This document shows, in pieces, positions 26,049-46,994 of a DNA stretch of 64,000 bases (the first letter of the stretch is position 1; each line of letters begins with the position of its first letter). A program made the position numbers and the translations under genes. Source of the DNA: a candidate division WOR-3 bacterium (lineage in GTDB: Bacteria; Hydrothermota; 32-111); the NCBI GenBank assembly GCA_039804105.1, contig JBDRZU010000001.1, forward strand, positions 992,001 through 1,056,000, given 5' to 3'. Below the pieces are notes generated by a model that saw nothing but the letters and a program-made list of their open reading frames with translations, was not told the origin of the DNA and searched no databases.

Positions 26049-26154
26049 ATTTTTTCCTCTTTTAATTTTTTTAATATTAAATTCTATCAATTTTTAAAAA
26101 TATCATCCAACTTTTAGATTATCCAGTTTCAAAAATATTATATAAACACCAATG

Positions 26155-29006
26155 ACCAAAAATGGTGCGATTAAGACCCAGATTAAGAGGCTGTTCCATA
26201 AGATTTCGCCACAGGGCATCTGGTTTCCATACCAAAAATGGTGCGATTAAGACAGATACCATCAAACATCAAATGGAAAGGGAACATTAGCAGTAGTTTC
26301 CATACCAAAAATGGTGCGATTAAGACTAGTGGAAAATAAAGAAGTAGATGTTCAGAAATGACTTATTATGTTTCCATACCAAAAATGGTGCGATTAAGAC
26401 CTTGACAAGAAAGTGAGTTTTAAAACTTTAAATTTCGAAGTGTTTCCATACCAAAAATGGTGCGATTAAGACGTATAGAGTAATTGGCTTAGATAGGAAA
26501 GTATCTTTTATAGTTTCCATACCAAAAATGGTGCGATTAAGACTTAAAATTGAAACTAAAAATTTTACATATTATTACGAAATGTTTCCATACCAAAAAT
26601 GGTGCGATTAAGACGAAAAAATGAAAAAAGAGGTTTTAAAAGAAAAACTTTTTAATGGTTTCCATACCAAAAATGGTGCGATTAAGACTCCAAAAAATGT
26701 ATCAGCATACATATTGCTGTCAGAAATGTTTCCATACCAAAAATGGTGCGATTAAGACGTTACCAGAGAACAAATCATTAACTTTCTTATGCCAGCTCGT
26801 TTCCATACCAAAAATGGTGCGATTAAGACCGAAGTGGGGATTGTATTTTTGACTGCTATTTCTTAACAAGGTTTCCATACCAAAAATGGTGCGATTAAGA
26901 CTGGAAGACATTGACAAATGGACTGTTGCACACGAATTGGCAAGGTTTCCATACCAAAAATGGTGCGATTAAGACAGAAGAAGACATAGAACAAATAGAA
27001 ATGATTGAACAACGTTTCCATACCAAAAATGGTGCGATTAAGACATTATTTTCTTCAAATTCTGATGGTTTTAAATTGAAAAGAGTTTCCATACCAAAAA
27101 TGGTGCGATTAAGACGGAGGTAAAAATGATACTTGACATTTCAAGAAATTGTGATGAGTTTCCATACCAAAAATGGTGCGATTAAGACCATCTTGGTATA
27201 TCTGATGGTAGTGTTGAAGTATGTGGCGAACCGTTTCCATACCAAAAATGGTGCGATTAAGACGGAGAAAGAGCCGAATATTGCATGGCAAAATCTCTTA
27301 ACCAAATAGGTTTCCATACCAAAAATGGTGCGATTAAGACGTGAGGAGGAAAAAATGAGACCAATGCCAAGAAAACTATATTATAGGTTTCCATACCAAA
27401 AATGGTGCGATTAAGACCTTGGAACATATGGTAAAAAGTTGGCAATAACTAGTATAAGTTTCCATACCAAAAATGGTGCGATTAAGACTGGATACGCATA
27501 TCCTCTAGTTGCAGATAATGACATACCAGTTTCCATACCAAAAATGGTGCGATTAAGACGGTATTATCTGCCCCCGTCATTTCTGTCTAATGGTAAAGTT
27601 TCCATACCAAAAATGGTGCGATTAAGACGTACAGTACATGTTGGTCTACATGTGATATACATGTGTAGGTTTCCATACCAAAAATGGTGCGATTAAGACC
27701 AAGAAGCACAGATATTAGTAAACGAGAACGTGCCAGATAAGTTTCCATACCAAAAATGGTGCGATTAAGACCAGTGGAGGAAAAAAGGATGAATAAAATA
27801 GAAAACATTATAAGGTTTCCATACCAAAAATGGTGCGATTAAGACACATAGAAAGGTATATGTTGTATATGTGACAAGATTTTCTGTGTTTCCATACCAA
27901 AAATGGTGCGATTAAGACATAATGTCAATTATGATTTTCCAGAAGCGCCATATGTTGGAAATGTTTCCATACCAAAAATGGTGCGATTAAGACCAAATAA
28001 AAGAAATAGGTTGGATTTTATTCCAGATAAAGTAGTTTCCATACCAAAAATGGTGCGATTAAGACCTATAGAAGCAAAAAATGAAAAGAAAGCAGAAATG
28101 ATAGCAAGTTTCCATACCAAAAATGGTGCGATTAAGACCTGATATAATATACCACATTGAATGGTATTTTTTCTCTTAGTAGTTTCCATACCAAAAATGG
28201 TGCGATTAAGACTCATCAATATATGATTCTGGCATCGAATACTGGGTTCCTGGTTTCCATACCAAAAATGGTGCGATTAAGACTATGGTTTATAAAAATA
28301 AAAAAATGGTTAATAAAGGAGGAAAAGTTTCCATACCAAAAATGGTGCGATTAAGACAATAAAAGAAATAGGTTGGATTTTATTCCAGATAAAGTATAAG
28401 TTTCCATACCAAAAATGGTGCGATTAAGACAGGAAAAGATGAATAAAATAGAAAACATTATAAGAGTTATTAATGGTTTCCATACCAAAAATGGTGCGAT
28501 TAAGACTGTAAAGAAAATAAAATTGGTATAGATATTTTACAAAAAAGTTTCCATACCAAAAATGGTGCGATTAAGACATTGTTTGAAAGAGTATCTCCTA
28601 TTAAACTTACATCATCATGTTTCCATACCAAAAATGGTGCGATTAAGACCAAAAAATTATAAAACCAGAAAAATTACCTGTTATAGCAGTTTCCATACCA
28701 AAAATGGTGCGATTAAGACTTGAAGCAGAACTAGATATATCATTGACAATATCATCAAGTTTCCATACCAAAAATGGTGCGATTAAGACTTTCATTAGAA
28801 TAGAACGTATCCAACATACTATCATTCCGTTTCCATACCAAAAATGGTGCGATTAAGACGACATCCCAGAATACATAAGACCAGCAGTGGATGCTGCTAT
28901 AGGTTTCCATACCAAAAATGGTGCGATTAAGACAAAAACAATGAAAAATTGGCATCATATGCTGCAACTATTATTGTTTCCATACCAAAAATGGTGCGAT
29001 TAAGAC
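26155..29006 (-). CRISPR. CRISPR array 1: 39 perfect repeats + 1 degenerate trailer repeat, 39 spacers of 38-46 nt
   Basis: 31-bp repeat, minus strand GTCTTAATCGCACCATTTTTGGTATGGAAAC (ACCA/TGGT stem, then 8-nt tag ATGGAAAC). Degenerate repeat at left and leader at right indicate minus-strand transcription. Confidence 0.98.
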
Positions 29007-29158: not shown

Positions 29159-29428
29159 TTATAGAAAATTATCCATTTCTTCGGAAGTTATCCCCACTCC
29201 ATGCAATTCTCTGTAAAGCCATCTTTTGTCTCTCATATAATAAATTATTAAACCATCTTCATTTTGATCACAGTTTTGAGAAAAATAATGTTTTATCTCT
29301 CTGATTTCCGACTCTGTCAATTCACCTTCAAAAACAGATCTCTGAACCCATTTTAAATATTTTTTTAAAAACTTATGAAATTTGTTAACTCTTTTTTCAC
29401 CAACATCATAAACAATAATCACATACAT
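29159..29428 (-). CDS. cas2: Cas2
   Basis: YVIIVYDV, WVQRSVFEGELT. Confidence 0.95.
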   Translation of the reverse strand: MYVIIVYDVGEKRVNKFHKFLKKYLKWVQRSVFEGELTESEIREIKHYFSQNCDQNEDGLIIYYMRDKRWLYRELHGVGITSEEMDNFL

Positions 29429-30418
29429 TTAATATTCCATTTTAAAAGGTGTATATTTTTCAAGTCCAATGATATGTTTTAAAATTTTATAACACTCAGT
29501 CCTGATAAGCATTCTGTATGATATATATTTTTCCATTTTTTTGTAATAAATTGTCTGCCCCAACCTTTTATCATATTCCTTCAAAACAATTCTTTTTCCT
29601 TTGTCGTTAAGAAAACAGATTTCTTGTTCACTTTCAAAATGAGAGTCATCAACCATATTTTTGTTTAAAATGTAAAAAATTATCCTATCAACAACTATCG
29701 GTTTAAAAATATCTGCTATATCAAGTGATAAAGAGTATCTCCGTTCTCCTGGCTCATGCAAAAAACTGATTGTTGGATCAAGTTGAGTTATATAAATTTC
29801 AGAAAGCACAGTCGAATATAAAACAGAATTTAAAAATGAAATCAAAGTGTTAACAATATTATTTGGAGGATTTTTTATTCTTTTTTCAAATTCAAACTCT
29901 TCATTTAGCCATTTTTTCCATGAATCATAATAAATCTTTCTTATGTTTGCTTCTGTTCCCATAATCTCGTTTATACTCTCTTTTGTATCAAGTTTTTCAA
30001 TAAAAAGTTTTATATTTTCGATTTCATTTTTTAAATCAATTTCTCTTCTGTTATAATATTGCATAATACTCAATATGTTTTCAGAACTTCCTTTAACAAT
30101 ATTTTTTGCAAGATATGATCTTTGTTCTATGTTTTTATAATGTTCAATTTGACATAAAAGAGTTTTACCTGAAACAGTTCTATCCATCGGGAAAAAACTT
30201 CCTGTATAATACCCATAATAACTGAAAAAATGTATAGGTATCTGATGACCTGCTAAAAGATTAACAAAATGAGTGTTCAAATCTATACTTCCAAAAAGAT
30301 ATAAGTTTTCAATATTTTCTATTGGAATTGCCTCCTCTTTTCCATCACTTTCAAAATATACAGTATTATCCTTTCTCTTTAATCTTCCATTTGAAATGAT
30401 AAAATAATTTTTGTCCAT
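29429..30418 (-). CDS. cas1: Cas1, type I-B-like
   Basis: GRLKRKDNTVYF, FFSYYGYYTGSF, NTLISFLNS, ISFLHE, LSLDIADIFKP. Start moved to ATG 30418. Confidence 0.95.
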   Translation of the reverse strand: MDKNYFIISNGRLKRKDNTVYFESDGKEEAIPIENIENLYLFGSIDLNTHFVNLLAGHQIPIHFFSYYGYYTGSFFPMDRTVSGKTLLCQIEHYKNIEQRSYLAKNIVKGSSENILSIMQYYNRREIDLKNEIENIKLFIEKLDTKESINEIMGTEANIRKIYYDSWKKWLNEEFEFEKRIKNPPNNIVNTLISFLNSVLYSTVLSEIYITQLDPTISFLHEPGERRYSLSLDIADIFKPIVVDRIIFYILNKNMVDDSHFESEQEICFLNDKGKRIVLKEYDKRLGQTIYYKKMEKYISYRMLIRTECYKILKHIIGLEKYTPFKMEY

Positions 30419-30423
30419 AAAAA

Positions 30424-30915
30424 TCAACTCCTGCATATCATAAGGTAAGAACATTTTTTACATTTATACATCTCTGAAAGTTCGGGTGGATTTTCATCCT
30501 CTTCTACCTTCTTCATTTCATCGGTCAAATTTTTTATTTTTTCTTCATCTCCTTCTTCAAGTTTGACTTCTATAACCTTTTTCTCTTCAGGGAAATTTAA
30601 AACACCTTCGATTTCTTTATTATAGATTTTTTTATAAATCAAAAGATAGAATTTTAATTGAATTTTATGATTTTCTATAAAAGCAGAGGACTTTTTTATC
30701 TCATGAATTTTTCCATCAGGTCCAACAAAATCAATAATATTCTTTCCAAGCAGTATATTTCTTTCCTCTCTTGGATAACTCGTTTTGTCAATCAGTTGAC
30801 CTATTATCAAGTCCTCATTTTTTCCGTCTGGAGAAATCCCTTTTGTAATAAGATAAAACTTCCTCTTACAAAAAAGATAATCTCCAACCAAACTCCCTGT
30901 ATAAAAAAAGTCCAT
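30424..30915 (-). CDS. cas4: Cas4
   Basis: YLFCKRK, IDFV...EIKKS, QLKFYL, CKKCSYLMIC. Confidence 0.93.
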   Translation of the reverse strand: MDFFYTGSLVGDYLFCKRKFYLITKGISPDGKNEDLIIGQLIDKTSYPREERNILLGKNIIDFVGPDGKIHEIKKSSAFIENHKIQLKFYLLIYKKIYNKEIEGVLNFPEEKKVIEVKLEEGDEEKIKNLTDEMKKVEEDENPPELSEMYKCKKCSYLMICRS

Positions 30916-36575: not shown

Positions 36576-38087
36576 TTAAATATTTTCCAAAAATTCCATA
36601 ATTTCGATTGCATCATAGTATGGCGTTATTTTTTCTTCAGTAAAAATTTTATTTGAATTATCATAAGTTGGTAAACAAAAATTTCTACTATTTAAAAAGT
36701 TTATGTAAAATTCAACATCTTCTTTTGATTTTATAAGATAGGAACGCAACTTTTTTATTTTATTTTTTGGTTTATTATTAAAATCGTTAACTAATTTTTT
36801 TAAATTATTAAAATTAAATTTTTCCAATATTTTTTCACCACCTATATAATATGGCCTCCAAAGCAAATTATACGAATCATAGCCTTCTTTAGGTTCTGGT
36901 TTTTGCATATTTGGAACAGAATAAATTTTATTTCTTAATGTTTTAAGATCCGTTGTTATTCCTGAAAAAACAATATGAAAATCTATCCAACTACCTATAT
37001 AATTTAATTTATAATAACTTGAAATTCTTTTTCCTTTTTCCTTTGCACTTTTACATAATTCTTCTGCCAATTCATATCCTCTATAAAATGGAAAATGGGC
37101 TTTTACCAAAGCAACACCAGCAGATGCGGTTAAAGTTAATTCTTTACCATCAATTTTTATCCTTTCTTGTTCAATATTTTTAAGAATATCTTCCGCAATA
37201 CTTAAGCCATATTTACCTTCACAAATTAGGGTAATATCATCCCCTCCAAAAATTATAGGTCTAATTTTTATTTTATTATTGGCTATAAAATGCTTTTTAT
37301 TTTTCATTTTTTTTAAAGTTTCTGAAAACGCTTTTTCATAAATTTTATTTATATCAAATGATATTTTTTTAATTAATCGAATAGAATCTTTAAAATCTTT
37401 TGAATTTTGTAATATTCCTTTAATAAAATTACCCATACTATTTCCATCAATATGAATATAGGCAAGGTGTCCATCTTCTTTACCTCTGAATTTTTCTATA
37501 TTTTTTTCAAAAGTCAAACCATCAAGAACTTCTTTAAATTTTTCTTCAAAAATATTAATTTCTTCTTCTCTCCTCATTAAATATGCTGGTTTTGAAATAT
37601 AACCATCTTCATCTTTATAATAAGCGGGTAGATTATCCAAAAAACTTTCTCTCGTTATTGATATTCCAAGAAGTGATGTCTTTTTAGGTAACTTATTTTT
37701 TCTTATATTCGCTTGTTTTATTAACTCATCAAAATCTTTTTGATAATCCTGTAAATTAGTTTCTTTATATGAAACTGCGAAAGAAACAAGACCATAAGTA
37801 TAATCATAAAAATTTTTAGACAGTTTTTTAGTAAAATTTATTGCGCTTTCCTTATCATTGAACATTAAAAGTAAATTTCCTCCTCCAGAAAATATTATTT
37901 TGCCTTCTTTTGAATCTGATTCAAATCCTTTGTCAAGATCAATTTCTGTCACCCCCAGACTTTTTAAATTTTCATTAGAAAATAATTTTGAAACGATGGA
38001 AGATGCTCCAATATTTTCACGCATTTTTTTTGAAAGAAAAATAAAATTCTGAATCCCTGTCATATCATAATAGGCCAATGTCTTCAT
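36576..38087 (-). CDS. cas10: Cas10 (III-D-like), no HD domain, intact GGDD
   Basis: Begins at DMTGIQNFIF; SGGGN, HIDGNSMG, IIFGGDD, SAGVA, AEELCKSAK. Confidence 0.92.
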   Translation of the reverse strand: MKTLAYYDMTGIQNFIFLSKKMRENIGASSIVSKLFSNENLKSLGVTEIDLDKGFESDSKEGKIIFSGGGNLLLMFNDKESAINFTKKLSKNFYDYTYGLVSFAVSYKETNLQDYQKDFDELIKQANIRKNKLPKKTSLLGISITRESFLDNLPAYYKDEDGYISKPAYLMRREEEINIFEEKFKEVLDGLTFEKNIEKFRGKEDGHLAYIHIDGNSMGNFIKGILQNSKDFKDSIRLIKKISFDINKIYEKAFSETLKKMKNKKHFIANNKIKIRPIIFGGDDITLICEGKYGLSIAEDILKNIEQERIKIDGKELTLTASAGVALVKAHFPFYRGYELAEELCKSAKEKGKRISSYYKLNYIGSWIDFHIVFSGITTDLKTLRNKIYSVPNMQKPEPKEGYDSYNLLWRPYYIGGEKILEKFNFNNLKKLVNDFNNKPKNKIKKLRSYLIKSKEDVEFYINFLNSRNFCLPTYDNSNKIFTEEKITPYYDAIEIMEFLENI

Positions 38088-38096
38088 CTCTCCTCC

Positions 38097-40472
38097 TTAT
38101 TCATAAATCTTTTTTCCAATCAATTCTATTAACAGATCATTCATTCCTGTTTTAGTATATATATTCAATCTCTGTTTACCACTTTTGGTGACTATCCAGT
38201 AAGAAACACCCTTTTCACCTATCATCTTTTCAAATTCAAGATGGTTTTCATCAACTTTACATTTTCTCATCTCATCGAGGATAAATTCCGTAATCAGGTT
38301 TCTTCCAATTCTGTATATTCTTTTAATAATTTCTCTGATATCTTTATCTGTTATATCATTGATTCCACTGAAACCATCGCCCCATAAAGTTGAATGGCTT
38401 TTTTTCTCTCCAATTCTTATCGGAACTTCTTCCTGATCAATTATATAACTCTTATAATAATCAAAAATCATCTTACCAACAGGAGAATCTGTAAAACTTT
38501 TTATGTTTTTATCGTTGTTAAGTAATATTCTAAAATTTTGTGGCAAATTATTTTTAAATAAATTTTTTGCTCTTTCATAGTCAGTTTCATTTTTTATTTC
38601 CTGTATCAATTCATAATACTTCTCATAAAGTTTGAAATCAAACTCAATTGGAATTTCGGGAAGTTTTACAATAGAATTAAAATCCTCAAAAACATAGTAA
38701 ACTGGAACCTTGTATAGTACTGCAAGTATTGTTGCATAAGCGATCTCTGCTTTGAATCCACCGGTTGCAAGTATTTCAATGTTTCTTCCAGTATTATCGA
38801 TTATGTTCGTAACTTTTTTGATAAAATTTATCAGCCCTCTTGTTTCAAATTCATTTGCATCATATTTTAATCCCTCAATTTTTACCCTTTCAACATTTGC
38901 TTTATATTTTTCAAGAATATACTTTTCAAGTAATTTACACGACTTCTCTCCCTCTTCAGTATCACTTTCTATTAAGTAAAACCAGGAGTTTTTATTTACT
39001 TCTTTTTTTAACTTATGGATTGTATTTGTTTCTGCTGAGACCTTTTCTGGAGGATTTGAAAGCATAAAATCCAAAATATGTTCGAAAGTTTCCTCTTTAC
39101 CAGGACACATCTTTCTAAAATTTCCAAACACCGCAGTTCCAACTGTTACAATATAACTTTTCATATCTTTTCTCCTTAAAAGTTTTCCTTTTTTAAAAAT
39201 CAGTTCTTTCCCATTCTCCCCAATTATCGTTCTAACTTCCTTTTTCAATTTTTGTTTCACATTTTTAATCGCATCCAAATCTCCATGAACAAGCAAAACA
39301 TTTTTCGGAGTAGTTCTGTTGACATAAGATATTATACCTTTCAAACTTGAATGGAGTGACAAAGGAAAGTGTTCAACATTGACTTTTTTCACATACTCCT
39401 TCTCATCTATATATATAACTCCATTTTTTTCAGTTTTTAAAAGTTCATATCCTAAAGTTCCTTTTGCAAGATAACCTGTGAAAAGAACAGAGGATGTCTC
39501 ATCCTCAATAAGATGTTTTAAAATTTGATATGAAGGAGTATGAGGATTCAGCATTCCACTTGAAGCAATTATTATCGATTTTCGAGGTATAGAATCAATT
39601 TTTTCAATATATTTAGATTTTAACGATTTAGAATGACATTCTCTATAAATCGGGGTTATTTTATTTGCCATTCCAACCGTATATATCTTTTTAGTTAACA
39701 ATTCTTTACTTCTTCTTTCAAAAAGAAATAGTATTTCCTGTGTTTTTCCAAGTGCAAAAGCAGGTATCAAAACAATTCCGTTTTTTTCTAATGTTTTATT
39801 TATCGATTCTATAAATCTACTTTCATATTTTTCTCTCATCTTTTCTTCATATTCTGAGTTTCCATTTGTTGTTTCTGTTATCATAATATCAACATTTTTT
39901 TTATAATAGTTTAATTTTCCTGTCATAATATTGTTCGAAACAGAAAAATCACCTGTATAAATCAAAGAGTTCCCTTTGTTATCAAAAATATGTATTCCAC
40001 AACTCCCAATAACATGTCCTGATTTAAAAAGTTTAAAATTTATATTAGAATTCAATTGATTAACCTTGTTCAGTTCAATACATTCTATCTTTCTGTCAAG
40101 TTCAAAAAGATTTAATTTATTAAAATAAATTTCATAGAACCTTTTATTATAGTCATTCATCATTAAAACCTTTGCACTATCAAGAAGCATGATTTTATAG
40201 ATTTCTTTCGAATTCTGACTCATCACAATTCTTTTCACATCAAAAATTTTTTCTATAACAGGCAATGAACCAAGATGATCAAGATGGGGATGAGATACAA
40301 ATAAGAGATCAATTTTTTCATCTTCAATTTTATGAAGTAAAGGTAATTTGTTATATCCAGATTTATTTGGATCCATACCACAATCAAGCATAATTTTTAT
40401 TCCTTCCCAATCAACATAATAAGAGTTTGCCCCAATCTCCTGTGCCCCGCCAAGCGGCATAATTTTTATCAA
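38097..40472 (-). CDS. MBL/beta-CASP nuclease fused to APE2256-type CARF + C-terminal domain
   Basis: LDCG, SHPHLDHLG, GHVIG, YTGDF, PAFALGKTQE, SLHS, VHGD. From Met437: VTVGTA, SAETNT, SDTEEG, ATGGFKAE. Confidence 0.85.
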   Translation of the reverse strand: MIKIMPLGGAQEIGANSYYVDWEGIKIMLDCGMDPNKSGYNKLPLLHKIEDEKIDLLFVSHPHLDHLGSLPVIEKIFDVKRIVMSQNSKEIYKIMLLDSAKVLMMNDYNKRFYEIYFNKLNLFELDRKIECIELNKVNQLNSNINFKLFKSGHVIGSCGIHIFDNKGNSLIYTGDFSVSNNIMTGKLNYYKKNVDIMITETTNGNSEYEEKMREKYESRFIESINKTLEKNGIVLIPAFALGKTQEILFLFERRSKELLTKKIYTVGMANKITPIYRECHSKSLKSKYIEKIDSIPRKSIIIASSGMLNPHTPSYQILKHLIEDETSSVLFTGYLAKGTLGYELLKTEKNGVIYIDEKEYVKKVNVEHFPLSLHSSLKGIISYVNRTTPKNVLLVHGDLDAIKNVKQKLKKEVRTIIGENGKELIFKKGKLLRRKDMKSYIVTVGTAVFGNFRKMCPGKEETFEHILDFMLSNPPEKVSAETNTIHKLKKEVNKNSWFYLIESDTEEGEKSCKLLEKYILEKYKANVERVKIEGLKYDANEFETRGLINFIKKVTNIIDNTGRNIEILATGGFKAEIAYATILAVLYKVPVYYVFEDFNSIVKLPEIPIEFDFKLYEKYYELIQEIKNETDYERAKNLFKNNLPQNFRILLNNDKNIKSFTDSPVGKMIFDYYKSYIIDQEEVPIRIGEKKSHSTLWGDGFSGINDITDKDIREIIKRIYRIGRNLITEFILDEMRKCKVDENHLEFEKMIGEKGVSYWIVTKSGKQRLNIYTKTGMNDLLIELIGKKIYE

Positions 40473-41869
40473 CGTAACCCCTCTATTGTTATTTTTAATA
40501 ATTCAAAAGATTTTTCTAATTCTTCAAAAGACATGTTTAGGTTATATTTTTTTAAGTAATTGAGTATCAAAAATTTTGCTAATTTTTTTATATCTTCTTG
40601 CTCTTCTTTATTAATAATTTTATCTCCATGAGCCATATTTGAACAGTTTCGTATCTTTGAACAATTAAAAATCCATTTAACATCTATATTTCTTTCTTTA
40701 CTCAAAATATCGTTATTCAAAAGTTTTAATATAAAAACATCATCCATTAGTGCTGTTTTAGGTGGTAAACCAGTTCCTTTATATTCTTCACCAAAAACTT
40801 TTCCAGCAATTTCTTTAAACTTTCCAAAATCTATTTTTATCTTTGAATAATCAGGCTTAGAAGTATCAAATTCATAATCTTTTTTTAAAACTGATTGAAA
40901 AATCATTTCTACTGTTCGATATAACAAAAATGATGAAATTTCATACCGTTCTTTTTTTTCATAAAAAATTCCTAAAAAATAATGATTGAAAATTTTATAT
41001 TCCTCAGTTTCTTTAATGTTTTCCAGTAAATTTACATTAATTTCTAATTTACTTCTTAGATTATTATCTAATTCTTGAAATTTGTTTAATATTTGTTCAT
41101 ATAATTTTTTTGATTCTTCAAAATTAAAATCAATCCAGTTTTTTTGTGCTTGAGATAATAATTTTATTAATTCAATATTATATTGTTTTCTAAAAGTAGT
41201 CTTTTCTTCATATTCTTTTATCAATTTACATGCTTCATTGTAATTGCCTGAATTAAAATAATTTAAAACATCCAACAAAACCTTATCCCCTGAGAGATAA
41301 AAAGGATTATAAATAATTTTTAAAAATTCTGAAGAAAAAAAAGGTTTATTACTTTCTCTTACATATCTTCTATAATCTATATAACATGCGTCTATATTAA
41401 AAATAGCACTGATCATTCCAGATATAGCGCTCATTGTTTTTTTCCCACCTGTTAAATCAATTAAAATTATTTTTTCTTTATTTGAAAGGTATATGTCTAC
41501 AATTTTGTTATAAAAATTAGTTATATCTCTTTCATCTACTTCATGAAATGATATTTTTTCCTTTTCATATTCAATTTTTTCAAGAATAATATCTCTATAT
41601 TTTGAACTTTCCTTAGTAACAATTAAATAAATTGCTTCCTTCGGTTTTACTAATGAACCAGAAAGAATTGAAGTTGCAGGAGAAAGTCCAACTAAAGAAA
41701 TCAAAATATCATATTCTTTTTTTACCTCTTTTTTATTTTCGTCAATAAATTTTTTTAGATATAAAGGTAAAAACTCATTAAAATAAAATCTATCTTTTTC
41801 TTTAAAATCTTTTATTTCATTATATTTTTTGTTCATTTCGTCCATTAATTTTTCAAAATTTTTATCCAC
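40469..41869 (-). CDS. CARF-HEPN ribonuclease (Csm6/Csx1-like, TIGR02710-type)
   Basis: SLVGLSP, IDLTGGKKTMS, HEPN RNCSNMAHG. Start GTG 41869, or the in-frame duplicate GTG 41938. Confidence 0.85.
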   Translation of the reverse strand: MDKNFEKLMDEMNKKYNEIKDFKEKDRFYFNEFLPLYLKKFIDENKKEVKKEYDILISLVGLSPATSILSGSLVKPKEAIYLIVTKESSKYRDIILEKIEYEKEKISFHEVDERDITNFYNKIVDIYLSNKEKIILIDLTGGKKTMSAISGMISAIFNIDACYIDYRRYVRESNKPFFSSEFLKIIYNPFYLSGDKVLLDVLNYFNSGNYNEACKLIKEYEEKTTFRKQYNIELIKLLSQAQKNWIDFNFEESKKLYEQILNKFQELDNNLRSKLEINVNLLENIKETEEYKIFNHYFLGIFYEKKERYEISSFLLYRTVEMIFQSVLKKDYEFDTSKPDYSKIKIDFGKFKEIAGKVFGEEYKGTGLPPKTALMDDVFILKLLNNDILSKERNIDVKWIFNCSKIRNCSNMAHGDKIINKEEQEDIKKLAKFLILNYLKKYNLNMSFEELEKSFELLKITIEGLR

Positions 41870-41969
41870 CTTCACTCCTTTTTTTCTATCATACCAAAAC
41901 GTAAGCAAGCGCGTAATAAGCGATTTCCCAATCAACACCTTCACTCCTTTTTTTCTATCATACCAAAAC
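41867..41969. repeat. 34-bp exact direct repeat around a 35-nt insert
   Basis: CACCTTCACTCCTTTTTTTCTATCATACCAAAAC at 41867-41900 and 41936-41969. Confidence 0.95.
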
Positions 41970-42681
41970 CCATTGAATTTTTTTCTCCTAAACCAGAATC
42001 GTAAGCAATATTTATAAGGTCTGTATCTCCTTCAAGAGTTATTTCATCAAAAATTCCTTTCAATTTAATATCTTTGAATTTTATTAATTTTGTATATGTA
42101 TATTTTTTAGAAGCATAGACATTTACTCCTTTACCGGTATATTTTTCACCAAAAAGAATCTCATATTTTTTTGCAAGATTATTATTCACTCTAATATTAA
42201 ACTCATCATCTATTTTCGTAAGATATTCAACTCTTCCATTTTCATAAAGTTTTGACACAACTATTGGTGAATTGCATATAAATTTATCTTTTCCTTTAAA
42301 TTTTGGGGTTCCTCTTATTTTTATTTCCTGTATTTTAAAATACTCATGTTTTATCTCTAAATAGCCCAATTCATAAAAACCTAAAGCGATTATTTCCAAT
42401 AATCTATTCAATGGAGATGATATAAACCATTTAAAACAACCATTTGACAGTTTCAAGTCAAGATCTTTCACTTTGAAAATATTACCTTTTAAAAATGAAT
42501 AGGTAAAAAGTTTGATATTTTTGTGTTCGTTTTCTTCATAAAAACCATCATCATGTATTTTTTTTGCAAGATCTTTATCGACAACATTTATTGATTTATA
42601 AATCGCAGAAGTCAGATAATAATTGTAGTTAAGTGGAATAGACCTTAACTGGTCATTACAACAAATAATTTCTATTCTCAA
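41941..42681 (-). CDS. cas6: Cas6
   Basis: IPLNYNYYL, KLFTYS, SPIV, GLGEKNSMGFG. Confidence 0.95.
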   Translation of the reverse strand: MRIEIICCNDQLRSIPLNYNYYLTSAIYKSINVVDKDLAKKIHDDGFYEENEHKNIKLFTYSFLKGNIFKVKDLDLKLSNGCFKWFISSPLNRLLEIIALGFYELGYLEIKHEYFKIQEIKIRGTPKFKGKDKFICNSPIVVSKLYENGRVEYLTKIDDEFNIRVNNNLAKKYEILFGEKYTGKGVNVYASKKYTYTKLIKFKDIKLKGIFDEITLEGDTDLINIAYDSGLGEKNSMGFGMIEKKE

Positions 42682-42692
42682 AATTTCCCCTC

Positions 42693-44435
42693 TTATATTA
42701 AGTTTATTAAATCGCTCAATTCCCTTATTTTTTCTATATTTTTTGCATTCAAAAATTTTATGTATCTACAGAAAGTTTGTTTAAAAAGTTTCAGTCCTTT
42801 TAAATTTTTTATTATATCTTCCATAACATCTTCATCTTTGTATTTGATATAATATGTTAACAATCCTCTTATTCCAAAAAGCAAATAATCTTCTTTTTCG
42901 AATTCTTTCATTTTTTTAAAAAAGTAATAATAAAGTTTTTTCGACATCTCTTGATCAGTTTCAAGAAATGAAAATGCATAATACTCAATTGCAAGATAAT
43001 ACATGTAATAGAATCTTGTGTCCTTAACTAATTCAAAGAAATCTTCCCACAAAAACTTCACTTCTTCTGATTTTCCAAGATGTGCATTCAATCTTATCTT
43101 CTCAAAATGGATAAAAACTTTCTGAATATTTTCAGGAGTTGCTTTTTTAAGATAATTTTCAGCAAGACCAATATATTTTTTAGAATTATTATAATTCCCT
43201 TTTAAAGTATTCAATTTTGCAAGATAACAGCAAACTCTTGATACATCAGAAGTAAGATACTTTTTACAAAACTCAAGATTATTTAAAAGATATTTTTCTG
43301 CTTTTTTAAAATCCTTATTGTGTATTAAGTATTGAGATAAAGTTCCATAGGTTGATATAGAAAGGTGTTTTCCTGTATATTTTTTTTCTTCCAAGTTCAA
43401 TTTCAAAAGTTTTAAGCCCTCTTTAAATCTGTAAATGTCTTTTAAAAATACTGCATAAACATTGTTAAATTCGATAGAAATATTATTATACTCAAATAAT
43501 TTTTCTTTTATAAGTTCATTTTTTGTATCATTTGCTCTTTTAAAATAATTTTCAGCAGTTAAAATATCTCCCGATTGATTATAATGTAATGCCAATCTTG
43601 ATAGAACAAGAAAGTAATAATTCTTTGACTTTATATCCTCTCTATTTTTAAGATATGCCTCAAGATTATTGTAAATTGGAAGATAGGAATTTTTATCACT
43701 CTTCAACAGATAATTTTCAGCAATATTGAACATTCTTTCAACACCAGAGAGAAATCTTTTATCGACTGTTTCAGTGTAATCTCCAAAGACATTTTTTATT
43801 ACTTCTTTAAAATTTTTCAATTTTTTATCAGGATAAACAAAGATTCCCTCTTTTATTTCCTTATCAAAACAATATTTTTTTTCTTCTATAAAATCAACTT
43901 CAAGCAGATTACCTTCAAAATCGAGTGCTCCAGTAAAACAAAATTTATCTTCCACATATCTATTCGTTACTGCCAAATATAAAAGCACTGCTATTGGAAG
44001 TTCGAGCGATTCACAATCAAGAGAAAAAATCTTTTCTATCTCATCAAAATTTTCAAGTATTATTTTGTTAGGATTCAAATCAATGATTATCTCTTTTTGG
44101 GCAAAATATTTTTCAACAACCACAACTGCTTTTCTTATAACATTTGCTATGTTTTCCTTATAAATGATTGTTTCATTTTCAGAAAAATTGACTTTTAACG
44201 GAATAAGAACCGGATACTTTTGATTTTTATCTATTATTACCACAGGAGCAAAAACATTATATTCCAAATGTGGATTTAAAATATCTACACTTTTACTCAA
44301 ATTTTTCAAAATTGTCTTCATATCATATGTTTTCACTTCATTTAAAAGTTTATCTATTATTAATTTTGAATGACTATAATTTTGAAATTTCAAAAGTAAA
44401 TTCAAATATTCAAATGACCTTAAATCTGATCTCAA
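42693..44435 (-). CDS. Lon-type (S16) protease domain + C-terminal TPR repeats
   Basis: DCES143LELPIAV...FTGALDFEGNLLEVDFIEEK186 (Ser-Lys 43 apart). TPR-like LALHYNQSGDILTAENYFKRA, GTLSQYLIHNKDFKKAEKYL, YLAKLNTLKGNYNNSKKY. Confidence 0.8.
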   Translation of the reverse strand: MRSDLRSFEYLNLLLKFQNYSHSKLIIDKLLNEVKTYDMKTILKNLSKSVDILNPHLEYNVFAPVVIIDKNQKYPVLIPLKVNFSENETIIYKENIANVIRKAVVVVEKYFAQKEIIIDLNPNKIILENFDEIEKIFSLDCESLELPIAVLLYLAVTNRYVEDKFCFTGALDFEGNLLEVDFIEEKKYCFDKEIKEGIFVYPDKKLKNFKEVIKNVFGDYTETVDKRFLSGVERMFNIAENYLLKSDKNSYLPIYNNLEAYLKNREDIKSKNYYFLVLSRLALHYNQSGDILTAENYFKRANDTKNELIKEKLFEYNNISIEFNNVYAVFLKDIYRFKEGLKLLKLNLEEKKYTGKHLSISTYGTLSQYLIHNKDFKKAEKYLLNNLEFCKKYLTSDVSRVCCYLAKLNTLKGNYNNSKKYIGLAENYLKKATPENIQKVFIHFEKIRLNAHLGKSEEVKFLWEDFFELVKDTRFYYMYYLAIEYYAFSFLETDQEMSKKLYYYFFKKMKEFEKEDYLLFGIRGLLTYYIKYKDEDVMEDIIKNLKGLKLFKQTFCRYIKFLNAKNIEKIRELSDLINLI

Positions 44436-45252
44436 TCATCTCCCCACTTTTTAAAGATTTTACTTTGATAATATTTTCTTTTTCAAAAGATGGAGTCAAA
44501 ATAAGTTCTTTATCTTCTAATTTTTTATTATCTATTAAAAATTTACCTTTTATACTTTTACATATAATTTTTTTGTCTTCAAACTTCAGAAACAAAATAT
44601 TTCCATCATTAAACTTTATTTCTCTCATTTTTTGTAATTTTTCTATATTCTTTATAATTTCGTCTTTTTCTGGTTGTTTCTTTTTTGCTGCCAAAACAGG
44701 TTTTAAAAAATCAACAGGTATTTCCCAGACAAAAACCTTATCTTTTTTAAATTCTTCTATGTAAGTTTTCAAATGGATATATGGAGAAATAAATTTGAAT
44801 TCATCTTCTTTTATTATTTTAAAAACATCATTTAAAATTATATTCAAATTCAAATCTTTCAAATTTGTATCTTCAATATATTTTGAAAAAACGAACGCCT
44901 CTTTCGGCAAAGAAATTTGCACTGGCGCAAAATATATTTTTTGTTTTAATTTTAGGGAGTCATAACACAACTCAGTTTTTCCTTCATATTCTGGGATAAA
45001 TATAACCTCATTATCTAAAATTTCCTTTACAAAAACAAATTTTTCAGGAACTGATTTTAGAATTGGGTTATATAGTGAATAAACTTTTTGGGGTGAGATT
45101 TCAGGAGGACTCTTTCCAATTAAAAATTTTTCAAGCCAATCGTTTAAAGTTTTTAAATACAATTTTTCTTTCTTTTTATCAAATAAAATCTTTTCACCTG
45201 ACTTAAAAAGTATATATTTTTCAAAATCATTAAATTCAATCTGATTTTTCAT
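44410..45252 (-). CDS. CalpT-like putative anti-sigma factor / protease substrate
   Basis: 280 aa between sigma-like and Lon genes; beta-rich N-terminal region, linker PVLAA(189)KK, ~90-aa beta-rich tail. Confidence 0.55.
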   Translation of the reverse strand: MKNQIEFNDFEKYILFKSGEKILFDKKKEKLYLKTLNDWLEKFLIGKSPPEISPQKVYSLYNPILKSVPEKFVFVKEILDNEVIFIPEYEGKTELCYDSLKLKQKIYFAPVQISLPKEAFVFSKYIEDTNLKDLNLNIILNDVFKIIKEDEFKFISPYIHLKTYIEEFKKDKVFVWEIPVDFLKPVLAAKKKQPEKDEIIKNIEKLQKMREIKFNDGNILFLKFEDKKIICKSIKGKFLIDNKKLEDKELILTPSFEKENIIKVKSLKSGEMIEIRFKVI

Positions 45253-45313
45253 AAACTCCTCAATCTTTCTTTCAATAAATATAAACTAAAAAATTTTCAA
45301 AAAACAAAAATTT

Positions 45314-46243
45314 TTATTTATTTTTGTAATTTTTTAAAATATTTTTTAAATCATCACAAGAGAGAGAATTTTTTACAACAAATTCTTCTATTTTTTTTTC
45401 AATCTTTTTTACATAAAACTGTATATTCTGTGGAGAAGTTTTTAATTCCTCTGCAATCTTTACAATTGTTATATCTTGTAAAAATTTAGATATAATACTT
45501 TTTTCATAATCGTTAAACAATGATTCAAATTTTTCATAATAAAAATTCCAATCCATTTCTTCTGTTTTTAATACAATTTCGTTTTCTCTTATACTACCAT
45601 TACCTTGTTCTTGTTCATCATCAATGATATTCACAACATCATTAAAAGCATATTTCAATTCATCCATTACTTTTTTTATCGATATTTTTCCATTTTCTCT
45701 GTATATCAAATAATCAAGATATTCTTGTAAATCTTTTGTTTTAAATAGTTGCTTGTTTCCTCTTAATTTTGGCTTTTGCGGAATTCTATTCTTTTCGAAA
45801 TTTCTAATCTTATTTTTATTGATCAAAATTTCTTGATCAAATTTAATATCTTTTTTAATTCCATAAAATTCTATTAAAATTTTCTTTATAGTAAAAAAAA
45901 GTTTTTTTTCTGGCTTTTTAGAAGTAATATCTTCGACATAATTTTCAAACATTCTGTTGATTAATTTTTTAAAACCTGTTTCATCAGAAAGATGACCTTT
46001 TTCAATTTTTCCCTTAAAGTAATTTAGATTGTTGTATATTTTTTTAGAAATAAAATTATATATCTCTGATTTAGCAAGATCTTCATTTTCTTTATTATAT
46101 ATTTCAAAAATGATGTAGTATTCGGGATTATGGTAAAACTTTTGTAAAAGATATTCTGTTAAAATTGTTATAAATTGTTCATTTAATTTTTTTTTCTGGG
46201 GGGTTTCTTTATTTTCAATTATTTTTTTTAATAATTCAAACAT
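45314..46243 (-). CDS. ECF-like sigma factor (CalpS-like role)
   Basis: Region-2-like ENEDLAKSEIY...FKKLINRMFENYVED; region-4 HTH DYEKSII...TIVKIAEELKTSPQNIQFYVKKI. ATG 46243 follows a promoter. Confidence 0.7.
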   Translation of the reverse strand: MFELLKKIIENKETPQKKKLNEQFITILTEYLLQKFYHNPEYYIIFEIYNKENEDLAKSEIYNFISKKIYNNLNYFKGKIEKGHLSDETGFKKLINRMFENYVEDITSKKPEKKLFFTIKKILIEFYGIKKDIKFDQEILINKNKIRNFEKNRIPQKPKLRGNKQLFKTKDLQEYLDYLIYRENGKISIKKVMDELKYAFNDVVNIIDDEQEQGNGSIRENEIVLKTEEMDWNFYYEKFESLFNDYEKSIISKFLQDITIVKIAEELKTSPQNIQFYVKKIEKKIEEFVVKNSLSCDDLKNILKNYKNK

Positions 46244-46253
46244 AAATATAAAA

Positions 46254-46282
46254 AATATAAAGTATTTTTTTACTATTGTCAA
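46254..46282 (-). promoter_or_regulatory. Putative sigma70 promoter of the sigma-like gene
   Basis: Minus-strand TTGACA (46277-46282)-N17-TATATT (46254-46259), 10 nt before the ATG. Confidence 0.6.
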
Positions 46283-46314: not shown

Positions 46315-46893
46315 GTTTCCATACCAAAAATGGTGCGATTAAGACCGAGAACGATCCGTTCTCGTCGATTTATAGAATCTTAAAGTTTCCATACCAAAAA
46401 TGGTGCGATTAAGACAAAAAACAATGAAAATTAAAAAAATCATTTCACTTATGTTTCCATACCAAAAATGGTGCGATTAAGACATTTTGAACAACATCGA
46501 CGAAGTTATTTACATCAACCCGTTTCCATACCAAAAATGGTGCGATTAAGACCTAAGATAGGAAGATAGGAAGAGAACAAAAGGAGGCAAAATGTGTTTC
46601 CATACCAAAAATGGTGCGATTAAGACACAACCCCTCTGCTGAGGGCTTCATCACATCTTCTCGAAAGTTTCCATACCAAAAATGGTGCGATTAAGACATT
46701 GATGGATTTATTACTGATTTTTTATGGTCTGATGAAGTTTCCATACCAAAAATGGTGCGATTAAGACGGGGTGAGGAGTTTAGGTACTCCTCTGACTACG
46801 ATAAAGGATTTTGTTTCCATACCAAAAATGGTGCGATTAAGACATAAAATAAAATAAAATAAAAAAATAGGCACCACCGGGTGCGATTAAGAC
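46315..46893 (-). CRISPR. CRISPR array 2: 8 perfect repeats + truncated leader-proximal repeat, 8 spacers
   Basis: Same 31-bp repeat at 46315, 46385, 46453, 46522, 46596, 46667, 46737, 46813; only 14 nt remain at 46880-46893. Confidence 0.97.
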
Positions 46894-46994
46894 AGGATCA
46901 TAAATTTAATTTTATTATATACTTATTTTAAAATTTGTCAAGATTTTTCTGTCGATCGGTGGTCGTGCAAAAAACCCGGGGGATCGACAGAAAA
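46894..46994 (-). promoter_or_regulatory. CRISPR leader 2
   Basis: Near-identical to leader 1; TTGACA 46936-46941, TATAAT 46914-46919. Confidence 0.9.

Follow-up and report, generated by a model that had tools for sequence, protein, structure and literature searches.

The 64,000-nucleotide (nt) stretch analysed here (hereinafter, the window; positions 992,001 to 1,056,000 of the forward strand of contig JBDRZU010000001.1, assembly GCA_039804105.1) comes from the 1.81-Mb genome of a candidate division WOR-3 bacterium and encompasses a type III-D CRISPR-Cas locus, with all genes on the minus strand. The junction between cas6 and the gene for a Csm6-family effector with CARF and HEPN domains is occupied by a compact unit in which two copies of a 34-nt sequence flank an insert of 35 nt. 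The features of this junction, in the order of transcription, are as follows.

41941..42681, minus strand: cas6, 246 amino acids (aa), intact (TIGR01877, E 3.3e-29)
41936..41969, minus strand: copy A of the 34-nt unit, which contains the genuine cas6 3' end along with the AAGGAG ribosome-binding site and the duplicated GTG
41901..41935, minus strand: unique insert, 35 nt, 43% GC, reading TTGATTGGG...GCTTAC on the minus strand; the allele of a relative lacks it
41867..41900, minus strand: copy B of the 34-nt unit, containing the ribosome-binding site and the GTG start that are native to the Csm6-family gene
40469..41869, minus strand: Csm6-family CARF-HEPN gene, native form of 466 aa (MDKNFEKL...), with 23 further residues if read from the GTG at 41938

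The direct repeat, CACCTTCACTCCTTTTTTTCTATCATACCAAAAC on the plus strand, is found at 41867-41900 and 41936-41969, with 34 of the 34 positions identical and a start-to-start distance of 69 nt; the bases adjoining the two copies differ, so that the length of the repeat is exactly 34 nt. With up to three mismatches allowed, the insert occurs once in the window and once in the entire genome, and its GC content (15/35, or 43%) exceeds that of the genome (30%), in full agreement with the first-pass annotation, which had singled out an exact 34-bp duplication around a unique, GC-richer insert. Across the whole genome, a scan for exact interspersed repeats of at least 20 nt with periods of 40-110 yielded six clusters, namely four CRISPR arrays, the 34/35 unit and a cluster of hairpins resembling repetitive extragenic palindromes (REP). 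A relaxed scan (at least 25 matches in 28 positions, periods 50-94) gave three matches outside the arrays: the 34/35 unit, the REP-like cluster and an apparently coding tandem repeat. The 34/35 structure is real, is alone of its type in this genome and is far beyond chance expectation. The REP-like cluster, the sole other non-CRISPR interspersed exact repeat from the genome scan, is located on contig C1 (1289200-1289480) and consists of several diverged copies of CGCAACC-TAAA-GGTTGCG followed by GCTAC.

On the minus strand, the 34-nt unit reads GTTTTGGTATGATAGAAAAAAAGGAGTGAAGGTG and includes the codons for the C-terminus of Cas6 (FGMIEKKE), the stop codon TGA (41943-41941), the AAGGAG motif and a GTG codon, which is the content that had been read from it at first pass. 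Copy A (41969-41936) is the end of the real cas6 gene, and copy B carries the native GTG of the Csm6-family gene at 41869-41867. The assignment of the native start agrees with the Csm6-family orthologues P0001 (93% identical) and P0002 (87%), both of which are 466 aa long and start with MDKNFEKL or MDENFEKL, that is, at the position of the copy B start. Because the duplicated stretch held the cas6 stop codon, the ribosome-binding site and the GTG, cas6 was untouched and the downstream gene retained its native start; both genes are intact, the 246-aa Cas6 and the 466-aa effector being complete, as had been claimed. The duplicated GTG in copy A (41938-41936) lies 23 codons upstream of the native one, in frame, with no intervening stop. 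The two starts 23 codons apart noted at first pass thus do exist, and an isoform of the Csm6-family protein with an N-terminal extension of 23 residues is possible.

An insertion with exact target duplication

The state of the junction without the insert is preserved in a relative. In a 16,977-nt contig assembled from X4, a run of another study, the counterpart of 41400-41866 is joined directly to the counterpart of 41936-42500, with exactly 69 nt skipped; compared with the window, the first segment shows 28 differences in 467 letters and the second 50 in 565 (~92% identity overall), and the 34 letters at the joint fit either side. This contig represents a precise empty allele, of the kind that the first-pass annotation had proposed to look for in related genomes, and the orthologues that start at copy B are in line with it; one of them, P0001, is encoded on a contig that is likewise 16,977 nt long. 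The event that produced the unit is an insertion of 35 new bases together with an exact 34-bp duplication of the target. It is recent because the two copies remain identical at 34 of 34 positions while the lineages differ by ~8%. The DNA comparison of the empty allele covers one relative, the X4 contig, and on this basis a deletion in relatives is less likely than an insertion. The prospect, also raised at first pass, that the insert is an ancestral remnant of a gene or of the end of an insertion sequence does not agree with the precise empty site in a relative with ~92% identity, and the insert resembles nothing nearby.

The junction was sought in other collections as well. The junction pattern had no occurrence among the metagenome contigs of the Joint Genome Institute (JGI), and a search of genome and metagenome contigs with the Csm6-family protein gave no confirmed relative. 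Among the 271 genomes of the phylum, this protein has, its own genome aside, only two matches, with 24-25% identity. A DNA search of 40 relatives matched only the cas6 gene of G003 (78%), a genome of the same genus, in which a cas10 gene encoding an HD-type N-terminus directly follows cas6, and the junction is not orthologous. Derivation of the insert from the N-terminus of such an HD-cas10, of which it would be a remnant, was considered and abandoned: a comparison by eye was unconvincing, and given the empty allele in X4 the hypothesis becomes unnecessary.

An assembly artefact does not account for the filled allele. An exact repeat of 34 nt is bound to interrupt a 31-mer graph, and the contigs of run X1 stop precisely at the places expected from this (41896, 41871-41965 and 41940); the piece that bears the insert, 95 nt long (41871-41965), has a depth of 7.1, compared to 8.7 and 6.7 for the flanks. 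In run X2, a single piece (41765-41952) begins in the Csm6-family gene, crosses copy B as well as the insert and ends within copy A, with a depth of 3.4 compared to 3.6 and 3.3. Contigs of both runs therefore cover the duplication at flank-like depth, which speaks to the worry, voiced at first pass, that reads might not span it. Runs X1 and X2 belong to a single study, among whose samples the source sample may be, and cannot be counted as independent of the published assembly; the assembly method was different.

Probable spacer integration and the alternatives

The features of the window that bear on the origin of the unit are the adaptation genes and the two CRISPR arrays.

29159..30915, minus strand: adaptation module, with cas4 (30424-30915), cas1 of the I-B type (29429-30454) and cas2 (29159-29428); the proposed agent
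26152..29006, minus strand: CRISPR array 1, 39 exact 31-nt repeats and a degenerate repeat at the low-coordinate (trailer) end; spacers of 38-46 nt
46315..46894, minus strand: CRISPR array 2, 8 exact repeats and a truncated leader-adjoining repeat (about 46880-46894)

The adaptation module lies ~11 kb from the 34/35 unit in the same locus. Its Cas1 belongs to TIGR03641 (E 4e-130), the I-B type, and with Cas4 and Cas2 also present, the module is complete. Three arrays, of which the window contains two, share the 31-nt repeat; together they comprise 72 exact copies of it and 69 distinct spacers, with spacer lengths of 37-46 nt (mode 40-43) and periods of 68-77. A conserved stretch of ~100 nt is located at the high-coordinate side of all three arrays (from 29007 to about 29110 in array 1 and from 46895 in array 2), and in arrays 1 and 3, degenerate repeats are found at the opposite, low-coordinate end; therefore, the arrays are read on the minus strand, and the repeat is GTCTTAATCGCACCATTTTTGGTATGGAAAC. 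Two pairs of array 1 spacers overlap within one protospacer each (27994-28034 with 28358-28399, and 27772-27814 with 28431-28475), sharing 39 and 27 bases, respectively, with an offset of a few nt, that is, one target region was drawn on more than once, in the manner of primed or hotspot uptake. The identical repeats in the three arrays, the 69 distinct spacers and the overlapping protospacers suggest that uptake is active.

Insertion of ~35 bp of unrelated DNA at a cut staggered by ~30 bp is the hallmark of spacer integration by Cas1-Cas2, and no transposase or repair route is known to us to leave an exact 34-bp duplication. We consider it probable that the unit was formed by a recent, natural off-target (non-canonical) spacer integration catalyzed by the Cas4-Cas1-Cas2 proteins of the type III-D locus, in accord with the natural ectopic acquisition proposed at first pass; the insertion with its target duplication, the empty allele and the intact genes are shown directly, and that Cas1-Cas2 was the enzyme is what we infer. 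Under this scenario, the integrase would have carried a short prespacer and attacked the two strands at the cas6/Csm6-family junction 34 bp apart, at 5'-GTTTT on the minus strand and at 5'-CACCT on the plus strand. Gap filling would then have duplicated the 34 bp on each side of the 35-bp insert, as happens with a CRISPR repeat, and the second, identical start 23 codons upstream could yield an N-terminally extended protein.

Several features of the target and of the unit are consistent with this scenario. The period of the unit, 69, falls within the native range of 68-77 in the 69 native units, 5 of which have periods of 69 or less. The target starts with GTTT at its 5' end, like the other strand of the CRISPR repeat, and shares with the 31-nt repeat the 10-nt word TTTTGGTATG, which in the native repeat comprises the loop and the 3' arm of a small hairpin; compared with 200,000 random 34-mers of the genome, a shared word of this kind has P = 0.0027, with the reservation that the statistic was picked post hoc. 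The GT start on the minus strand and the sequence shared with the repeat, both pointed out by the first-pass annotation, are therefore present. The attacked bases are G at one border and C at the other.

Other observations weigh against integration by this module. The first-pass argument that the 69-nt period fits the array geometry holds for the sum and only approximately for the parts: the duplication is 34 nt long against a 31-nt repeat (+3), and the 35-nt insert is shorter than all 69 native spacers (37-46 nt). Partitioning the unit instead into 31 and 38 nt would need three bases at the spacer end to match the flank by chance, with a probability estimated at a few percent. The word TTTTGGTATG is out of register with both borders, being 1 nt from the upstream border compared to 16 nt in the repeat; one of the border bases is C rather than G; and no likeness to a leader end was seen by eye upstream of the site. 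Nor was a donor of the insert found. The host genome, searched with up to three mismatches, contains only the insert itself; phage and plasmid sequences yielded BLAST matches at the chance level only (E of at least 1); among the viral contigs of IMG/VR, the exact 35-mer and three 19-mers had 0, 0, 2 and 0 loci, the two loci matching the 19-mer only, with no extension; and a 24-mer of the insert had no occurrence in species-representative genomes. The blank result of these searches says little because the 38 canonical spacers of array 1, examined as a control, are equally without a match in the phage set.

Among the alternatives, a process without Cas proteins deserves attention first, although we consider it unlikely. 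It could be the movement of a very small mobile element whose target duplication is unusually long, or template switching or the capture of filler DNA at a staggered break, and would accommodate the inexact match of the sizes to native repeats and spacers, the out-of-register word and the missing protospacer. Several observations on the insert, however, count against it. It is not a hairpin (folding z scores of 0.0 and -1.2 relative to shuffled sequences), so that a hairpin mobile element was rejected as a candidate; it has no other copy in the genome; and no second unit of this kind was detected in the 1.81 Mb. Templating of the insert from cas6 through the shared TTGCTTACG located 100 nt away was likewise rejected as not significant. 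Nor is the insert templated from the flanking 1.5 kb to its left or right: 37 of 500 shuffles, and also 41 of the 69 native spacers, attained its best local score. The lack of any transposase or repair pathway known to us that leaves an exact duplication of this length counts against this explanation too. No Rfam family was matched between 41000 and 43000.

Relative to a minimal native unit of 31+38, the duplication is longer by three and the insert shorter by three, such that only the sum matches the arrays, and because of this a process that fixes the total added length is conceivable. That the unit exemplifies such an undescribed process, distinct from Cas1-Cas2 and setting the total at ~70 nt, seems improbable to us.

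Slightly less credit still is due to the possibility that the repeat-insert-repeat form is the old one and that the relatives lost the unit by recombination between the 34-nt copies, with the empty allele being derived. Direct repeats of 34 nt can recombine, as in the loss of spacers from arrays, and the DNA of a single relative was compared; however, the copies show 0 differences against a lineage divergence of ~8%, and a rough estimate of the chance of zero changes in 68 nt is ~0.08. The protein P0002 (87% identical), also called from the downstream start as a 466-aa product, points weakly to an empty site in its lineage.

The genome encodes a second adaptation module, in a type II-C system with Cas9 (1038 aa), Cas1 and Cas2 on contig C2 (415370-421981), which reaches the final 200 nt of that contig; its array contains at least 33 exact 36-nt repeats and spacers of 29-31 nt, 28 of 32 being 30 nt long, with a period of 66. 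It is very unlikely that this second Cas1-Cas2 pair made the integration. The type II-C repeat exceeds the 34-nt duplication by only 2 nt, but the spacers and the period fit the 35-nt insert and the period of 69 worse, the target shares 5 nt with the II-C repeat compared to 10 nt with the 31-nt repeat, and the borders GTTTT and CACCT are unlike the II-C repeat ends, GCTGG and ATTCT. Finally, a spurious assembly loop at the short repeat is scarcely credible: the repeat is longer than a 31-mer, so that a 31-mer graph cannot count the turns of the loop, and X1 is possibly the sample of origin of the genome, but the insert, bordered by unit sequence to its left and right, is present at flank-like depths in the contigs of two runs, and 35 unique bases would not be invented.

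With spacer integration retained as the probable origin, there is the separate matter of whether the unit works as a CRISPR. The native repeat folds into a small hairpin, whereas the new repeat is unstructured (0 kcal/mol); the final 8 nt of the new repeat are TGAAGGTG, compared to ATGGAAAC in the native repeat. The latter octamer is, presumably, the tag of the CRISPR RNA (crRNA). Because the unit lacks the hairpin and the crRNA tag of the repeat, we read it as a neutral scar rather than a working array, with the second translation start of the Csm6-family effector as the sole likely phenotype. Of the one-spacer proto-array suggested at first pass, the shape stands and the function probably does not, given the missing hairpin, the different final 8 nt and the lack of any leader-like sequence seen alongside.

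Other genes and arrays of the locus

The effector set of the type III-D system consists of a TIGR03986 RAMP protein, Csx19, Csx7-like and Csx10-like RAMPs, and a short Cas10 (503 aa; 36576-38087, minus strand), for which the only Pfam match is to the second palm domain. In G003 (L003, 1828-3336), the cas10 gene directly after cas6 is longer and encodes an N-terminal HD-type motif, LLHDLGK. From this gene order, two CARF genes seem to have been inserted between cas6 and cas10 in the present lineage. One of these is the Csm6-family gene; the other (38097-40472, minus strand), located between the Csm6-family gene and cas10, encodes a protein of 791 aa in which a metallo-beta-lactamase/beta-CASP nuclease is fused to a CARF domain (Cas_APE2256). 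The nuclease part is aCPSF1-like or Cas14-like, with scores under the curated cut-offs, and the fusion protein is probably a second effector under the control of cyclic oligoadenylates.

Upstream of cas6 (42693-46282, minus strand) are three genes encoding proteins of 580, 280 and 322 aa that were assigned to no family. The 580-aa protein gave only faint ChlI/Lon-like and TPR matches and has a homologue in G003 at the equivalent position beside cas6. These three genes may constitute an uncharacterised type III accessory module.

In array 2 (46844-46894), the leader-proximal repeat keeps only GTCTTAATCGCACCC on the minus strand and is preceded by an A-rich 'spacer' composed of repeated ATAAA. 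The site next to the leader at which this array would integrate new spacers looks damaged and, therefore, spacer uptake in array 2 may have ceased.

Comparison with known cases of off-target integration

Off-target integration by Cas1-Cas2 is established in vitro for several systems and in Escherichia coli overproducing the integrase, and has been proposed as a route for the birth of new CRISPR arrays. To our knowledge, natural cases for which both the filled and the empty allele are available are rare. The phenomenon is already known, and the present case adds a new natural instance, which is valuable for the pair of empty and filled alleles, the candidate integrase encoded in the same locus, the exact cut positions and the three extra nt of the duplication. 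The case also indicates that such an integration mistake can be harmless, the end of cas6 and the start of the next gene having been rebuilt by the duplication, and that the event may have created a 23-residue extension on a CARF-HEPN effector.

In the type I-E system of E. coli, off-target integration by Cas1-Cas2 reportedly gives rise to 'neo-CRISPR' units, as Nivala, Shipman and Church are said to have described in Nat Microbiol in 2018. The unit in the WOR-3 genome resembles these in that an insert of about spacer size is located outside arrays and flanked by a genomic duplication of approximately repeat length, at a target that appears partly repeat-like. It differs in being natural, with no overexpression of Cas1-Cas2; in its proposed agent, a Cas4-Cas1-Cas2 module of the I-B type serving the type III-D system of an uncultivated hot-spring bacterium; in the duplication that exceeds the repeat by 3 nt and the insert that is shorter than all native spacers; and in its position at a gene junction inside a cas operon, where it duplicated a translation start. 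A preprint that cites the E. coli work describes the evidence for natural cases as circumstantial and as coming from two other species.

The Cas1-Cas2 of Pyrococcus furiosus makes paired cuts 30-31 bp apart in vitro at repeat-like non-CRISPR sites, with a preference for G and then C (PMC6698737). The scenario proposed here similarly combines attacks on opposite strands at approximately the repeat length, a target with some bases in common with the repeat, and G and C as the attacked bases; however, the P. furiosus experiments employed plasmids in vitro and gave a spacing equal to the repeat (PMC6698737), whereas the spacing in the present case is the repeat length plus three. The Cas1-Cas2 of a type III-associated system from a thermophile is also promiscuous in vitro, without HU (PMC13769266), a further point for the proposed agent. 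The ectopic acquisition in Streptococcus thermophilus and S. mutans is comparable in that a spacer is placed away from the leader-proximal repeat, but in these bacteria integration occurs within arrays, at true repeats, in contrast to the non-repeat DNA targeted here (PMC7999890, PMC5338259, PMC8265633).

Target duplications made by transposons are shorter and those of casposons measure 14-15 bp, whereas CRISPR repeats average 32 bp (PMC4872114). The casposase, a homologue of Cas1, shares with the present case Cas1-family integration accompanied by target duplication, and differs in the 14-15 bp length of the duplication and in the cargo, which is a whole element in casposons as opposed to 35 bp here (PMC4872114). 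The I-B system of Haloarcula hispanica has the same Cas1 subtype, and the size of the duplication is set there by motifs in the repeat's middle part: when these motifs were moved, duplications of 29-33 bp were obtained instead of 30, a slip of up to +3 (PMC4872114). The 34-nt duplication in the WOR-3 bacterium, equal to the repeat plus three, falls within this slip, the difference being that in H. hispanica the repeats were engineered and located in an array beside the leader (PMC4872114), whereas here the target is non-CRISPR DNA that keeps only one inner motif of the repeat. If the unit was indeed made by the Cas4-Cas1-Cas2 module of the locus, the three extra base pairs would be a natural reading of the integrase ruler on a non-cognate target.

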